Assembly: GCA_038217285.1 (NCBI GenBank)
Contig: JBBQPO010000339.1
Location: 1 to 5,587, forward strand
From: Chthonomonadales bacterium
GTDB taxonomy: Bacteria; Armatimonadota; Chthonomonadetes; Chthonomonadales; Chthonomonadaceae
Direction: 5' to 3'
Length of the DNA: 5,587 bases
Within the stretch, counting starts at the first letter, position 1; every line of letters begins with the position of its first letter. A program made the position numbers. Below are positions 1 to 5,587 of the stretch, piece after piece.

Positions 1-3000
1 AAACACCTCGTGACACGGTTTGCCCTGCGCCTCTTCTTCGTTCCAGCCGGTGAGCGTGACGGCCACCCGGTTCATAAATGTGACGAAGCCCTGGGCATCC
101 GTCGCGATGACCGCGTCGCCGATGTTTTCGAGCGTGGTGAACAGCCACTCCTCACTCTCCCCAATGGTCTTGGCAGAACGGGGGTGGGTTCGAGCCTTCT
201 GCTTGGTTTCTGTGGGGTTGGGCTTGTTTTGCATAGTCTTCGAGGGAACTTTCCGGCTTTCGCCAGCAATGCAAGCGTACCAGGAAAGGAGGGGTGTCAG
301 AGAGTGACGGCAAGGTCGTCCGTGACGGAAGTCACGCCCGGAGCAGACCAGGCGGCCATGACAGCCTCGTCCCGCTCCGAAAAGGAGGATACGCTTCCAC
401 TAGTATAGACAGGTAGGAGGAAAGAAACATCCGCCAAATGGCCGATTGTGCATCTATCCTTCTCCTGCCTCCGCCTCGACAGCCGATCAATCCTGCTGGA
501 TTGTATATGCGATGACAACTACATCTTCAACAGAACCCTTTCCAGGCCAGTGAGAAAGAGGAGAGATCTGCGAAACGGCGGATTGTGGCGCTTGAAGAGC
601 AGGCGTCAACGCCGGGGCTTCCAACGTGTCAAGCGGGCCGTTGTCTGAGGCATAGGCTCTCAATCCGTCATTTGGCGGATGTGCGGACCTGTCTCCTGCG
701 CTACCATAGGCGTATGCATACCCTGGCGGTCTGAGGAAGCGTGTTCGGAGGAAAATAATGTTCAAAACGATTCTTGTCTGTTCCGATGGTTCAGAGGCGG
801 CGCTTCAAGCGGCTCAGGCTGCCGTGTCGCTAGCCCGGAGGCATCCTTGCCGGGTAACGCTGTTGTATGTCCTGGATCTGCAGGTCGTTATCCACCCCTC
901 TATTGGAACCTTGGAAGGCCCACGAGAGGTCGCCCATTATCAGCAAAAGGCACGCGAAGTCGTAGAGGATCCCACAGCAAAGTTTTTCTGCGACGCCGAC
1001 GTACCTTATGAGTGGCGATTTGAGATCGGTCATCCTGTCGAAAAGATTCTGGAGGTCGCGAAAGAGCAGGGGGGCGACCTGATCGTAATCGGCACGCGGG
1101 GTCAGCGCGGATGGAAGCGGTTACTCCTGGGCAGCGTCTCTGAGGGCGTGCTGCACCACGCCTCGTGTGCAGTCCTGTTGGTAAACGGGAAGAGCGGCTT
1201 GCACGAATCAAAAGGTTTCGAGCATATCCTGCTCGCTTCCGATGGATCCGCAAGCGCCGACAGGGCTGCTCTCGTGGCGGTGGAGATCGCACAGACGTTC
1301 GCCACCTCCCTGCGGGCGCTCAATGTCGTGGAGCCGTTCTCGTTCGGCCCGGTGCTGTCGGACGACGACTATACGCTCCTGACCAACTCGGATCCGGAAG
1401 TCGTGGCAAGTCACTATTTGGCGCATCTCCGGAGCTGCCTCGGCGGTGCGGTCGCCGACGCAGGCGTCTACTGTAGCTTCCACCAGGAGCGGGGACCGGC
1501 AGAGGATACGATCGTTCGTTTTGCGGAAGAGCATGGCACCGATCTGATCGTCATGGGCAGTCGCGGGCTGGGTGGCTTTGACCGGATGCTGCTGGGCAGC
1601 GTCTCCACCTATGTCGCGCATCACGCGACCTGCCCTGTGCTAATCATACGCTGAACGCCCCGGCCCCTGCTACAGGAGTTGAAAAGGCCCATAGTATCTT
1701 GGGCACAATCCGCCATTTCGCGGATGAAAACGGACCCCGCCTGCGCTAAAATGCACTATGCTTAGATTCGCGTCCCTTACCTTTCAGGAGGTATACCATG
1801 TTTCACAAAATTCTTATCGGCTCGGATGGCTCCGAATGTGCGTGCAACGCCGCCCTGCTTGCTGCCGAGATCGCCAAGCGCTTCCAATCGCAGACGATCA
1901 TTGTCAGTCCTCTCTTAGCATCGTTGCTGCCGCCGTATCGAGTGATCCAGGAGTTGGGCCATCCGGTGGATGCTCTGCTTACGGTCGCAGAGAGCGAGCA
2001 GGCCGACCTGATCGTGGTGGGCAGTCAGGGGCTGACACGACTGAAAGAGTTTTTCCGGGGCAGCGTCTCTTCTGGCGTCCTGCATCATGCCCACTGCCCG
2101 GTGCTGGTCGAGCGAGGACCGGTAAAGCCTTTTGAGCGTATACTCTTGGCTTCCGACGGTTCTGCCGGATCGCAGAAAGCCGCCGCCGCCGCGTTCGCAC
2201 TCGCGAAGGGATTTGACGCCTGCCTGAGCGTTTTAAGTGTCAAGGAGCCTTCTGAACGGTTCCACGTGGAGGATGCCAATCCGCATGCCGTGAAGACGCC
2301 CGAAGAGTTGGACGAGAGGGACAAACGCTGGCAAGCCGTTGAAGAAAGCGTGCAGGCATCGGCAAAGGAGACAGCAGTTCCCTACCGTATCTGCGAGGAG
2401 CAAGGGCATGCCGGCGAGGCCATAGTGTGCTATGCCGATAATGGCAGATACGATCTGATCGTCATGGGCAGCCGGGGTCTGGGCGGGTTTGAGCGTTTGC
2501 TACTGGGCAGTGTCTCGGACCACGTGCTTCATCATGCCCATTGCTCGGTGTTGGTCGTACGCTGACACACGGAGTGTGGGGCAGGAATCGCTCAAAACGA
2601 GCAGGAGAAAAGGAGGGGTCTTATGAGTAATACAGATCCGTGGCAGATCAGCCCAGAGGACTTTCCCTGGCAAGGAGAACCTGCCGAGAGGCTGAAGTTC
2701 CTGGTCGGGTTCGCCATTCTGGCGCCTTCTGTGTACAACACGCAGCCCTGGATCTTCTCCGTCGACGGCGATACGATCCAGGTTTTTATAGACGCGACCC
2801 GCTGGCTGCAGTCCGGCGACAAAGACCAGCGCGACCTCCATCTGAGCGTCGGATGCGCGCTGGAGAACCTGCTGGTCGCCGCCTATCACTTCGGGTATCA
2901 ATGCCAGGTGGATTACTTTCCGAGTCCGGCTCATCCTATGTTGGCTGCGACTGTCCGGTTGACGGCCGGCAATGCGGGCGTTTCTCCTCGAGAAGACCCG

Positions 3001-5587
3001 CTCTTTGATGCGATCCTGCATCGAAGCACAGATCACCATATCTTTTCCGCCGAGCCCGTTCCACCCCACATGATCCATCAATTGACAGGATGCTGTACAA
3101 AAATGGGGATCGTACTCCATACAACCACTGATCGCGAACTCCTGCGGCACGTCGATGCGCTTACCCTCCAGGCGGACGCCGTCAAGTTCGCCGATCCTGC
3201 TTACAGGAAGGTGATTGCCTACTGCATCAAACAGGGAGTCTTCGACACAGACTGGCTCTTGACGAAGCTGTCCCAACTCGCGGCGAGTCATCTGCGGCAC
3301 ACCAGCAATCAAGTCAAAGAGGAGTTCCAGATTCTCAAGGGTGCGCCGGTGCTGGGAATCCTGGTTTCCGAAACAGACGACCCTCCGACGCAACTGAGGG
3401 TAGGTCAGGTTTTCGAGCGGATCTTCCTGACGTCCGTGTCGTTAGGACTGCGCGTGGAGCCTATCACGCACGTGTTGCAGGTGCCGGAGACCCGATCAGC
3501 ACTGGCAAAGCTTCCCCTGATAAACGGCCTCATTCCACAGATCCTGTTCCGACTGGGGGATGCGGCGGGTGACCTTACGCATACCCCGCGCCGCCCTGGC
3601 GAAGAGGTTTTGCGGGAGAGCGTCCCGATGGACGCGGGACGATAGCGACGCAAGACCGACTCGAAAGTTCGATGCTCTCGGTTCGCGGTGGCCCGCCATT
3701 CGAAGGCGAGCATCTAATAGGCGGATCGCCTGCCAAAAAGAAGCCGATGTTTTCCAAAATCCTTGTTTGTTCCGATGGCTCCGACTTCTCGCTGGCCGCC
3801 GCGCGCATAGGCGCTTCCATCGCAGGCCATTTTCGTTCGGAGGTTCTGGCCCTCAACGTGTTTCATTTTTCAAAACATCACCAGAGCGTTCAATCAAGGC
3901 ATCGTAGAGACGGGTGGCAACGTGCATGACGCCAAGAGAATGTTCAAATCGTGTGTGCATTGCTCCTGGATAAAGATAATCCGTCCAAGCGAGTTGCCGA
4001 AGACGTTGACAGGCGGGATGCGCCAGAATCTGCTTTTCCCATTCATCTACGACTATGAATCCGTGAACCGGGCATCGAAATTCATATTGGCGATTCCCAG
4101 CCATACTCTCTCCTTATTATAGCATATATTTGTCTACTATGCAATAGTTGGCCTTGAAAATGTGGAACGTCTCGGTTGTCTACTGTATACATGATGCAAT
4201 GGCGCGCATAGCGCGCTTGAGGCGGTCGGCTATTCGCGCAGGCGCGGGTCGAGGGCGTCGCGCAGGGCGTCCCCGAAGAAGTTGAAGGCCATGACGGTCA
4301 GGGCGAGCAACAGGCCGGGGGCTAGCAGCAGCAGGGGATGCGTCTCTTTGTAGACCAGGGCGTCTTCGATCATGCGCCCCCAGCTCGGAAAGGGAGGCTG
4401 AACGCCCAGGCCGAGGAACGACAGCGTGGCCTCCGCGAGAATGACGCCTGCGATGTCCTGCGTCACCTGCACGATGATCGGGCTGAGCAGGTTGGGCAGC
4501 AGGTGGCGGAGGATGATGTGGCGATCCTTCACGCCGATGGCGCGCGCTGCCTCGATATACTCCTTTTCCCGCAGGGCGAGCGCCTGCCCGCGCACCAGGC
4601 GGGCGAGGCCGGGCCAGCCGACGACCCCAAGCGCGAAGAACAGCACTACAAAACTGCTGGAAGCGGGCAGGGCCTGACTGCCGGAGCGCACGATCGCGGA
4701 GAGCATAATGGCCAGCAGGATGTCGGGGAAGGCGAACATCACATCGGTCAGGCGCATGAGCGCCGTGTCTGTCTTACCGCCGTAGTAGCCCGCCGCCAGC
4801 CCGAGCGTCACCCCGACCAGTATCTCCACGACGACAACGATGAGGGAGACGCCCAGCGACACGCGTGCCCCGTAGAGCAGACGGCTCAGAATATCCTCGC
4901 CCAGCCCGTCGGTACCCAGAGGGTGATGGCTGTCGGGTGGGGACGGGAGCGAGTTGTAGTTTTTGGTGTCCAGATAGTCGTAGGCGTAGTGCGTGAAGAG
5001 AGGCGCGCAGATCGCGACGAGCACGAGGAGAACGATAAAGAGCCCACTGACCACGGCAACAGGGTTGCGGCGCAGCCGCCGCCACGCCTCCGCGCCAGGA
5101 CTCAGGCTCTTGCGGGCAGTCAGAAGAACAGGTTGGGATTCGGGAAGAGCGGCCATCGTTACGCCTCCCGCCGCACACGCGGGTCTACCACGCCGTACAG
5201 AATATCTACCACGAGATTGACCACCAGAAAGACGACGGCGACGAGCAGCGCCATCCCCTGGATGACGGCGTAGTCGCGCTTGGTGATGCTGTCGATAGAG
5301 GTGTAGCCGATGCCCGGGATCTGAAAGATCGTCTCGATGACGAAGGATCCGGTCAGCAGATAGCCGAAGTTGGTGCCTACGATCGTCAGCACCGGCAGCG
5401 CCGCATTCTTCAGCGCATGTCGCCAGACGGCCTGACTGCGTGAGAGCCCCTTCGCTATCGCTGTGCGCAGATAGTCCTGCCTGAGCACTTCCAGCAGCGA
5501 GGCCCGCATGAACCGGGCCATGAGCGCGGCGGAACGCGAACCGAGCGCGATCGTCGGCAGAATCAGATATTTGGGATTGACCACGGT

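Follow-up and report, generated by a model that had tools for sequence, protein, structure and literature searches.

The window analysed here, a stretch of 5,587 nucleotides that forms contig C339 of a Chthonomonadales genome (G000; Armatimonadota), carries several copies of a short inverted repeat next to universal stress protein (Usp) genes. Which regulator reads this box, and to which signal does the regulon behind it respond? A sister element, the class A box, marks pilus genes in the same genome; the element studied here is referred to as the class B box. In our reading, the class B regulon is probably of the DosRST type, responds to hypoxia, NO or redox state, and uses an operator of its own.

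Class B boxes and the genes they accompany

The motif ATCCGC-N6-GCGGAT, searched with at most one mismatch, was found four times in the window, at 429, 566, 663 and 1708, corresponding to boxes at 427-, 564-, 659+ and 1704+. A fifth match, at 4232, had two mismatches. Dinucleotide shuffles of the window gave a mean of 0.56 matches at up to two mismatches, and five were reached in 0 of 200 shuffles. On a weight matrix of 24 nt derived from 12 seed sites, box 1 (427..450, minus strand; CACAATCGGCCATTTGGCGGATGT) scored 36.6 bits, box 2 (564..587, minus strand; CACAATCCGCCGTTTCGCAGATCT) 34.2 bits and box 3 (659..682, plus strand; CTCAATCCGTCATTTGGCGGATGT) 32.9 bits. Box 4 (1704..1727, plus strand; CACAATCCGCCATTTCGCGGATGA) is a perfect dyad with no mismatches and scored 38.0 bits.

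When the whole of G000 was scanned with this matrix, 13 class B sites scored between 27.3 and 39.5 bits, and the class A boxes came next with at most 26.2 bits. C31:28707+ reached 20.4 bits, and since this value falls within the range of the maxima of three mononucleotide genome shuffles (18.1-21.9 bits), it was counted merely as a possible 14th site. All 14 sites lie outside called genes, and the four copies in the window follow the 24-nt form C-ACAATCCGCC-ATTTn-GCGGAT-GT. The matrix and pattern scans recovered every G000 site listed in the initial annotation (on C339, C154, C143, C238, C1 and C7) and added C154:9187+, C1:56187+, C52:543- and the weaker C31:28707+.

The gene downstream of box 1 has a PAS domain and is cut by the contig end, with only its 5' part present (1..234, minus strand; Pfam PAS, E 6e-10). 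Its best same-genus matches were other PAS proteins (43-54% identity), and no class B box was found in the loci fetched around them. This gene is probably not the sensor kinase HK-B described below, because it is merely 33% identical to the N-terminus of same-genus HK-B. On the plus strand, box 3 is followed by a tandem Usp gene of 298 aa (758..1654; two Pfam Usp domains, E 1e-67). Two stretches of 758-1651 match PF00582, as in the tandem form, and the PDB matches include the Mycobacterium tuberculosis tandem Usp TB31.7 (2jax, 3cis; E 1.7e-14). A second tandem Usp gene, of 255 aa, follows box 4 (1798..2565, plus strand; Pfam Usp, E 2.5e-59); we read the stretch 1798-2562 as two putative domains, the first one reduced. 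The next gene (2623..3645, plus strand) encodes an FMN-binding oxidoreductase of 340 aa. Its earlier label, nitroreductase-like, can be sharpened to the Acg family, as window 2623-3642 scored 246.6 bits, above the 199-bit cut-off of NCBIfam NF047509, and matched positions 2-319 of the 319 in the profile; the sole PDB match was the Acg nitroreductase 2ymv (E 2.8e-18). The gene lacks a box of its own and is separated from the Usp gene by a gap of 57 nt, and is therefore probably co-transcribed with it. A truncated Usp fragment (3747..3929, plus strand; Pfam Usp positions 1-45 of 141) is without a recognisable box.

Across G000, the targets comprise five canonical Usp genes, the Acg-family oxidoreductase, two P-type ATPases and YflT, as well as an Fe-S/Rieske operon, a truncated globin, a Zn-ADH and an acetyl-CoA hydrolase; our Pfam scan agreed with the labels assigned before. 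A PF00582 search of the genome returned the five genes on C339 and C154, the fragment at C339:3747 and a Usp-like domain with a weak score (36.8 bits) at C31:16293, which has no box near it. The statement that all five Usp genes are preceded by the box thus holds for 5 of 5 canonical paralogues, but in view of C31:16293 "all" is slightly too strong.

Promoter geometry and distribution of the box

In 12 of the 14 G000 sites, a -10-like hexamer begins 21-22 nt past GCGGAT (+42/+43). In the window these hexamers are TATACT for box 1 (402..407, minus strand; 21 nt past GCGGAT), TACCAT for box 3 (702..707, plus strand; 21 nt past the last dyad base) and TAAAAT for box 4 (1747..1752, plus strand). 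The two sites lacking a hexamer at the right distance are C339:564- and C1:56187+. At the former, box 2, the expected position is occupied by TGGAAA. The orthologous box in the relative G057 (L045:741-) has TATAAT, plus a 69-aa ORF, and the homology between window and G057 ends near window 551. We list box 2 as a putative relic or auxiliary site.

The same geometry was seen at most sites in the phylum. Among 101 unique Armatimonadota sites, 88 have a -10-like hexamer beginning at +41..+43, compared with 3-12 at four control offsets. Exact box matches outside the phylum numbered 17, were scattered and close to the chance expectation, and a single one of them had the same-spaced hexamer. The consensus over 95 unique sites is CACAATCCGCCATTTnGCGGATGT; in the logo of these sites TAnAAT and the flanking C(-1), G(+21) and T(+22) appear beyond the positions of the search pattern. 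No -35 consensus was found at the box promoters, where GATGTn occupies that position. The dyad centre lies 30.5 nt ahead of TAnAAT in those 88 sites; if transcription starts 7-8 nt past the hexamer, as we presume, the dyad would be centred at about -42.5/-43.5. These counts uphold the original proposal that a box at fixed distance from a -10-like hexamer marks a separate regulon.

The distribution of the box was assessed with the pattern ACAATCCGCCRTTNNGSGGAT at up to one mismatch and the reversed pattern as control. Within the order, 25 of 68 genomes matched (26 of 68 in the initial annotation), with no control match in either count. In the phylum sample, 41 of 401 genomes had the box, spread over 26 of 207 genera, and 2 of 401 matched the control; the figures given before, 51 genomes and 34 genera, had been obtained with a pattern that was not stated. 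The box is conserved within Armatimonadota, but "phylum-wide" overstates a presence in 41 of 401 genomes, with box and kinase together in 6 of 49 sampled families. In all these statistics related genomes are non-independent observations.

The kinase-regulator pair and the reading of the box

In relatives of G000, the box is associated with a two-component pair. HK-B consists of PAS, GAF, HisKA_3 and HATPase_c domains, and RR-B is a NarL-type regulator with REC and GerE domains. In a PDB search, the GAF domain of HK-B matched DosT (2vzw, E 2e-35) and DevS (2w3d, E 5e-34) with about 50% identity to the haem GAF-A, and no other GAF structure at E < 1e-5. The histidine of HPxM and the tyrosine of SLYL, which we take to be the haem-ligating proximal His and distal Tyr, are kept in 28 of 28 HK-B orthologues. 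The domain is therefore predicted to be of the haem-binding DosS/DosT type.

Genes for a HisKA_3 kinase and a REC/GerE regulator are adjacent in 25 of the loci examined in the order and in G234, G226, G351 and G145. Of the genomes in the order, 29 have a strong haem-type GAF kinase (at least 190 bits), and the box was present in 23 of these versus 2 of the other 39; in the phylum sample it was present in 38 of 55 kinase genomes versus 3 of 346 others, and kinase and box are confined to the same 6 of 49 sampled families. The remaining 17 of the 55 kinase-bearing genomes, many of them in family f14, are without a box under the strict pattern, and G055, from the same genus as G000, has the pair and merely one box match. 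The two are also physically linked. Among the 25 loci of the order with RR-B beside a strong haem-type GAF kinase, 10 have a same-strand box after the stop codon of RR-B; this arrangement was also seen in G234, G351 and G145, and with three mismatches in G226. Outside the order, 13 of 23 box-bearing genomes have a listed box on the kinase contig, 1.2-10 kb away, and in G057, G056 and G351 HK-B, or an operon of the order Usp-HK-RR or Hsp20-HK-RR, has a box upstream. The reported position of the box beside a kinase-regulator operon is borne out by these counts.

The sister system is found in G000 itself. Its class A box, CAAAATnTGCCrTTTCGCAGATGT, precedes five pilin-like genes and PilB, PilC and PilT-like genes; there are 18 such boxes, distinct from the class B boxes (half-sites ATCTGC and ATCCGC, respectively), and no target was common to both classes among those examined. 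RR-A and HK-A lie on C279 adjoining class A box loci, in support of the claim that HK-B/RR-B is paralogous to the pilus-linked pair; RR-B is 68-69% identical to RR-A of G000 (previously 69-71%). Overall, the earlier interpretation stands for the separate regulon and the paralogous pair, but not for the wording "phylum-wide" and "all Usp".

Given the observed sites, hexamer spacing, targets, and co-occurrence and linkage with the pair, we consider the following mechanism probable. HK-B would sense, through its haem-GAF domain, probably the loss of O2 or the binding of NO or CO, and phosphorylate RR-B. The RR-B dimer would bind the dyad ACAATCCGC-N6-GCGGATGT, whose centre lies some 42.5-43.5 bp before the presumed start, in place of the missing -35, and would recruit RNA polymerase to -10-only promoters. 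This would be class II activation of the kind seen with DosR at hspX. The predicted output is a survival programme of universal stress proteins, Acg, Hsp20, CBS and M50-CBS proteins and P-type ATPases, together with cytochrome bd and fermentative and redox enzymes.

The G000 assembly is 95% complete, and neither RR-B and HK-B nor the haem-type GAF was found in it; our search thereby confirmed what had been remarked for RR-B. This absence, along with the missing -10 of box 2, would suit a true loss of the pair from G000, with the boxes orphaned and decaying or read by RR-A. We regard such a loss as rather unlikely, given that the genome retains 13 well-kept boxes at 27-39 bits, distinct from the class A boxes and mostly with their hexamer, and that the kinase is present in 4 of 4 other genomes of the genus. 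Moreover, 0.86 of the window's words occur in a sequencing run (X1) in which two contigs, of 1507 and 1449 nt, cover RR-B and HK-B of the same-genus G057 (L125 153-2399) at 82% and 86% identity, the window itself being 85-87% identical to G057; these contigs are metagenomic and allow no assignment to G000. The window was found in no RNA run. At about 1.5 kb, they are shorter than the shortest G000 contig (1562 nt). Most likely, the pair in G000 is unassembled rather than lost.

The missing regulator would also fit a reading of the box by another transcription factor, e.g. a CRP/FNR-type dimer, with the kinase-regulator operon as a mere regulon member. CRP/FNR-type dimers bind 5-6-5 dyads near -41.5; TCCGC-N6-GCGGA has this half-site spacing, and its position suits class II activation. 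The lxa locus of Burkholderia cenocepacia, with similar content, is described as carrying an Anr/FNR-like motif (PMC3721108). Nevertheless, this reading appears unlikely: no cNMP-binding or Crp-type HTH domain was detected by Pfam among 201 neighbouring proteins, box and pair co-occur as described above, the HK-RR-box order repeats in distant families, and the paralogous RR-A/HK-A adjoins the sister box. Repression by RR-B, with the -35 region blocked and the regulon switched on when the regulator departs, is similarly improbable. The dyad would span -51 to -34, which could equally be a repressor site, but these promoters lack a -35-like hexamer that could be occluded, contact with polymerase needs just such a fixed phase to the -10, and the same geometry is described as activating for DosR (PMC13486717). 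Finally, box and hexamer together might form the promoter of an alternative sigma factor, and an ECF-type sigma gene is itself a box target in G040. This is very improbable, as the element is a 2-fold dyad, 21-22 nt exceeds the length of a -35/-10 spacer, and TAnAAT is a sigma-70-like hexamer.

Relation to known dormancy regulons

The proposed RR-B/HK-B system resembles DosS/DosT-DosR (DevS/DevR) of M. tuberculosis in the sensor, which combines the haem-type GAF with HisKA_3 and HATPase_c, in the REC and GerE domains of the regulator, and, if the presumed start holds, in an operator dyad near -43 over a poor or absent -35. The DosR site at hspX is described as centred at -43.5 with a suboptimal -35, and K179, K182 and N183 as the base-reading residues of DosR (PMC13486717). 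RR-B aligned to DosR (3c3w) has Ser, Lys and Thr at these positions, so that one of three is kept; at the position of K179, most RR-B have Ser and RR-A has Gly. The M. tuberculosis DosR regulon includes tandem Usp, Acg, Hsp20 (alpha-crystallin), a CBS pair, M50-CBS, a P-type ATPase (CtpF-like) and ferredoxin, and all of these were box-linked in G000 and relatives, along with an AAA_33 protein, ArsR and PFK. In G056, a Usp gene heads the two-component operon, as Rv3134c does in M. tuberculosis. The stress/dormancy label, first given by analogy, is now backed by homology as well: HK-B, the sensor, has a DosS/DosT-type GAF, and hallmark targets are shared, such as the Acg-family protein encoded in the window.

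There are also clear differences. The operator is ATCCGC-N6-GCGGAT instead of the GGGACT..AGTCCC of the Dev box; HK-B has a PAS and one GAF domain, while DosS has two GAFs; and in Armatimonadota, a different phylum, the kinase gene precedes the regulator gene. In contrast to the DosR regulon, box-linked genes include cytochrome bd, multihaem cytochromes, RIC, rubrerythrin and phosphoketolase. The best sequence matches of RR-B are VraR (143 bits) and NarL (131 bits), and DevR (119 bits) is no nearer to it than these two; no NCBIfam equivalog was found for it above cut-off. Its recognition helix, ESTVKTHV, resembles ESTVKVHV of NarL, but sensor type, operator and regulon differ. OsdK/OsdR of Streptomyces coelicolor, which controls stress and dormancy-related genes, is a DosRS-type pair outside mycobacteria; unlike the present pair, it is actinobacterial and reads a DevR-like motif. 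The genes of the lxa locus, a regulon activated by low oxygen, are described as clustered; many encode Usp, and others encode alpha-crystallin, a nitroreductase, a sulphate transporter, phosphofructokinase and a cation ATPase. Many of them are preceded by a short dyad motif, and an overlap with the DosR regulon is remarked on by the authors; the motif, TGA-N6-TCA, has a CRP/FNR protein, not a response regulator, as proposed reader (PMC3721108).

Tentatively, the dormancy regulon may be no actinobacterial speciality but an old transferable module, made up of a haem-GAF kinase, a NarL-type regulator and core genes for Usp, Acg, Hsp20, CBS proteins and P-type ATPases, which in Armatimonadota was re-wired and given another operator. 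Once the pair had been duplicated, the changes at the K179 position of the recognition helix might then help to separate the hypoxia regulon (ATCCGC) from the type IV pilus regulon (ATCTGC). The sister boxes and their closely similar regulators offer a compact natural case of paralogous-regulator insulation.

Armatimonadota are common in soils and sediments, with few cultures, and full-text searches returned nothing on their regulation. For low-O2/NO survival in this phylum, the present results provide a putative operator defined at the sequence level, together with candidates for the sensor and the regulon. A predicted haem sensor of the DosS/DosT type is found here, with a large part of the DosR genes, under a different DNA code, which bears on the origin of the mycobacterial dormancy programme. 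The sensor closely resembles the O2/NO sensor behind dormancy in the tubercle bacillus, and a similar dormancy programme therefore probably exists in a distant phylum that has been little studied.

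A conserved box and its promoter geometry

We searched the window for the dyad ATCCGC-N6-GCGGAT of the class B box and found four matches with at most one mismatch, compared with 0.56 in shuffled sequence even at two mismatches. The window is the entire contig C339 of the host assembly G000 (6.2 Mb, 459 contigs, 60% G+C), which was scanned with a weight matrix built on 12 seed sites. Thirteen sites scored 27-39 bits and were set apart from all else, the maxima in three shuffled genomes being 18-22 bits. One further site, C31:28707, is weaker (20.4 bits, inside the shuffle range) and is no more than a possible fourteenth member of the class. 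All 14 sites lie outside called genes, and each points at a gene. The class B box described in the initial annotation is real.

The box had also been credited with a constant spacing to a -10-like hexamer. Indeed, a hexamer T/C-A-n-n-n-T begins 21 or 22 nt past GCGGAT at 12 of the 14 sites in G000. When the set was extended to 101 unique sites from G000 and the loci of its relatives, the hexamer started at +41 to +43 in 88 of them, compared with 3 to 12 at four control offsets. This spacing is conserved. A logo of 95 of the 101 sites brought out TAnAAT at +42 to +47 and the flanks C(-1), G(+21) and T(+22), all of which are outside the pattern used for the site search. With the hexamer set as -12 to -7, the dyad occupies -51 to -34 and is centred at -42.5 (-43.5 if the start is one base on). 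The place of the -35 element is taken by GATGTn, where a consensus promoter scan found nothing.

Gene content of the window and targets of the box

The window opens with the 5' part of a PAS-domain gene (1-234, minus strand; Pfam), which continues off the contig. An intergenic region of 520 nt separates it from the first of two tandem universal stress protein (Usp) genes (758-1654 and 1798-2565). These are followed by a gene for a 340-aa FMN-binding oxidoreductase (2623-3645), previously called nitroreductase-like. It belongs to the Acg family (NCBIfam, 246.6 bits vs a cut-off of 199), and its sole solved-structure match is the Acg nitroreductase 2ymv. Further along, a Usp fragment of 60 aa (3747-3929, plus strand) runs into the end of an oppositely oriented 83-aa ORF (3853-4104), to the right of which lie two ABC permease genes. 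The ORF has no Pfam match; it carries a motif that we take to resemble the start of HD-domain hydrolases. Because homology to G057, a genome of the same genus, ends at 3867, the stretch 3747-4104 seems to hold two truncated genes meeting at an old rearrangement. A scan of the window for consensus sigma-70 promoters gave two promoter-like sites, not above shuffles, and a terminator scan gave no terminator-like match at the end of any box-driven gene.

Box 2 of the window (564, minus strand) lacks the hexamer. The orthologous box of G057 has TATAAT and a 69-aa ORF; homology between the two genomes breaks just beyond box 2, and in G000 another box with the PAS gene follows. We interpret box 2 as either a relic or an auxiliary site upstream. 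At 480-500, in the stretch that separates box 1 from box 2, lies a short inverted repeat, CAATCCnnnnGGATTG, whose first bases are those of the box, yet it is not a box.

The targets on C339 are the two Usp genes, the Acg gene and the PAS gene. On C154 they are a Usp gene, a tandem Usp gene, a P-type ATPase gene, and a tandem Usp gene followed by a Zn-dependent alcohol dehydrogenase gene. Boxes also precede genes for YflT and a P-type ATPase (C238), a 4Fe-4S protein, a Rieske protein, a SLAC1-type channel and a molybdopterin oxidoreductase (C1), a truncated globin and a Fer2/FAD/NAD reductase (C7), an acetyl-CoA hydrolase (C143), and two genes without a family. The initial annotation placed the box before all Usp genes. 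A whole-genome search of G000 returned the five Usp genes of C339 and C154, the window fragment and one weak Usp-like domain on C31; the claim holds for the five genes but not for the weak domain, which has no box nearby.

Target families of G000 were seen again in relatives, namely in an island of G040 and in loci of G041, G056, G057 and G063. The relatives' loci add Hsp20, a CBS pair, an M50 peptidase with CBS domains, BON, AAA_33, an ArsR-type regulator, cytochrome bd, SulP-STAS, multihaem cytochromes, ScdA/haemerythrin, rubrerythrin, radical SAM enzymes, glycogen phosphorylase and phosphoketolase. In four genomes of other families (G234, G226, G351 and G145), boxes precede genes for tandem Usp, Usp with phosphofructokinase, Acg with a P-type ATPase, Hsp20, BON, cytochrome bd, Zn-dependent alcohol dehydrogenase with YflT, acetate kinase and haem-copper oxidase.

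With about 17 class B boxes along its 66 kb, the G040 contig C131 (loci L038-L041) can be regarded as a 'stress island'. Its box-driven genes include those for a CHAT protease, a subtilase and an ECF sigma factor, and a Cas6 gene lies just beyond its kinase-regulator operon. On G351:C5 (L179, 1535-2663 and 4272-6876), the acetate kinase gene after a box is in three ORFs and the P-type ATPase gene in two, reflecting either frameshifts or assembly errors. Two regulators with a GerE domain and no receiver domain (L043:3996-4730, 245 aa; L047:3263-4069, 269 aa) adjoin cytochrome c and multihaem cytochrome genes. Because such a receiver-less regulator directly follows a box in G063, the regulon may include a second-tier regulator.

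A candidate kinase-regulator pair

A kinase-regulator operon closes the G040 island and also occurs within the box clusters of G056, G057 and G063. As the initial annotation had it, the operon stands beside the box: at least 10 genomes of the order, together with G234, G351 and G145, have kinase, regulator, box and next gene in this succession. The candidate kinase, HK-B, consists of PAS, GAF, HisKA_3 and HATPase_c domains, or of GAF onward only, and the candidate regulator, RR-B, of REC and GerE. The GAF domain of HK-B matches the haem-binding GAF-A of DosT (2vzw, E 2e-35) and DevS (2w3d and others), about half of the residues being identical; no other GAF structure matches at E < 1e-5. The HPxM histidine and SLYL tyrosine, which we take to correspond to the proximal ligand and distal tyrosine of DosS/DosT, are retained in all 28 HK-B orthologues and absent from remoter paralogues, e.g. 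those of G002 and G003. RR-B is a plain NarL-family protein (VraR 143 bits, NarL 131 bits, DevR 119 bits). No NCBIfam equivalog reached its cut-off for either protein, and the ESM Atlas returned generic GAF clusters only.

Among the 68 genomes of the order, 29 contain a strong kinase match (at least 190 bits), and 23 of the 29 have the box. Two of the other 39 have it, namely G000 and G009, the latter by a single one-mismatch match; genomes counted here as without the kinase include G061 (pieces of 100 and 61 bits) and G002-G004 and G024 (63-69 bits). In a sample of 401 genomes of the phylum, the kinase (E 1e-40 or better) occurs in 55 and the box in 41; 38 have both, 17 the kinase only and three (G000, G009, G133) the box only. 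Six of the 49 sampled families (f1, f2, f6, f12, f14, f29) have kinase and box in common, with one extra box match in f19. Outside the order, 13 of 23 box-bearing genomes have a listed box and the kinase on one contig, at a distance of 1.2 to 10 kb. In G226 and G234, both single-contig genomes, a box lies 1.2-2.2 kb from the pair. Related genomes are not independent, which inflates the statistical weight of these co-occurrence counts; a stronger argument is that the physical arrangement is repeated in six families. G055, a 98% complete genome of G000's genus, has the pair (GAF 94%, regulator 84% identical to those of G057) and only one box by the search pattern, its congeners having 5 to 13.

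An exact-match scan of 185,579 species, with one genome each, returned 57 stretches. Forty come from records whose titles name Armatimonadota lineages (Chthonomonadaceae, Chthonomonadales or Chthonomonadia, Capsulimonadaceae, Abditibacteriaceae, Armatimonadota or Armatimonadetes). The remaining 17 are single matches in 17 records of other taxa; a rough estimate of chance matches is also about 17, and the hexamer is rightly placed in only one of them. Therefore, the class B box is an Armatimonadota element present in a minority of the phylum. The phylum-wide range given in the initial annotation is overstated.

The absence of RR-B from the G000 assembly was confirmed: the best regulator match on its contigs is RR-A, the paralogue of RR-B, at 68-69% identity, and no haem-type GAF was found. 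Kinase fragments on C348 and C423 were considered as HK-B; both lack a haem-type GAF and a neighbouring regulator. The PAS gene of the window is probably not HK-B either. At the same N-terminal positions it is 29% identical to HK-B of G040 and 33% to that of G055, within the genus it is matched best by other PAS proteins (43-54%), and the fetched loci of these have no box.

The kinase is present in all four other genomes of the genus. One sequencing run (X1), which contains a fraction of 0.86 of the window's sampled words, has contigs that include pieces of 1507, 1449 and 1553 nt covering the regulator and kinase genes of G057 (L125, 153-2399) at 82-86% identity; L125 1-116 and 2437-2552 have no cover in this run. 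None of the runs listed for the window is an RNA run. The window and its G057 counterpart are 85-87% identical. This shows that the sample contains a pair of the right divergence; the contigs are metagenomic and their assignment to G000 is not implied. Because the shortest G000 contig is 1562 nt, such pieces of about 1.5 kb may just have been excluded from the bin.

The weight-matrix scan of G000 also brought out the sister box of the pilus genes, class A (CAAAATnTGCCrTTTCGCAGATGT). It has 18 sites at two or fewer mismatches, with a TACAAT-like hexamer at the class B distance, on C279, C67, C370, C49, C18, C198, C305, C345, C40, C3, C15 and C119, all outside the window. Its targets are five pilin-like genes, PilB, PilC, a PilT-like ATPase, a TPR protein and an ankyrin protein; on C279, two class A boxes flank pilus genes adjoining RR-A and its kinase HK-A. 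The half-sites are one base apart, ATCTGC in class A vs ATCCGC in class B, and the left flank differs too.

At the position aligned with K179 of DosR, 25 regulators beside a strong haem-type-GAF kinase have Ser (21), Cys (3) or Gly (1), and eight remoter paralogues, including RR-A of G000, all have Gly. Two of these eight (G029 C104 and G043 C488) adjoin kinases with a haem-like GAF. Ser is also found in four regulators (G002-G004 and G020), of which those of G002-G004 adjoin weaker GAF matches; the G002 and G003 kinases, the two aligned, have lost the haem motif. The position is a lead to a putative specificity switch between the two boxes. A second regulator with a second haem-like-GAF kinase occurs on G057:C430 (L166), G029:C104 (L164) and G043:C488 (L165); in two of these regulators the residue at this position is Gly and not Ser, and no box lies in the fetched flanks.

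Comparison with DosRST

According to a 2026 cryo-EM report on the hspX promoter scaffold, the DosR box is centred at about -43.5, with a suboptimal -35 and a consensus -10, and DosR reads GGGACT and TGTCCC via K179, K182 and N183 (PMC13486717). The geometry equals that of the class B promoters within one base, given the assumed start site. The DNA words differ, however, and an alignment to DevR (3c3w) places Ser, Lys and Thr of RR-B at K179, K182 and N183, so that RR-B does not share the DNA-recognition features of DosR. DosS and DosT, in turn, are relatives of the HK-B sensor. Burkholderia cenocepacia offers a second precedent for such gene content under low oxygen; the motif there is Anr/FNR-like, unlike the class B box (PMC3721108). 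The full-text literature covered, one key comparative paper lying outside it, contained nothing on this Armatimonadota system.

The stress regulon proposed in the initial annotation was right in outline, its range being overstated, and can now be put more exactly: in this sharpened form, the system is a putative DosS/DosT-like sensor with a NarL-type regulator. Given the like geometry and the related sensor, we predict from sequence and promoter geometry that it would work like DosRST.
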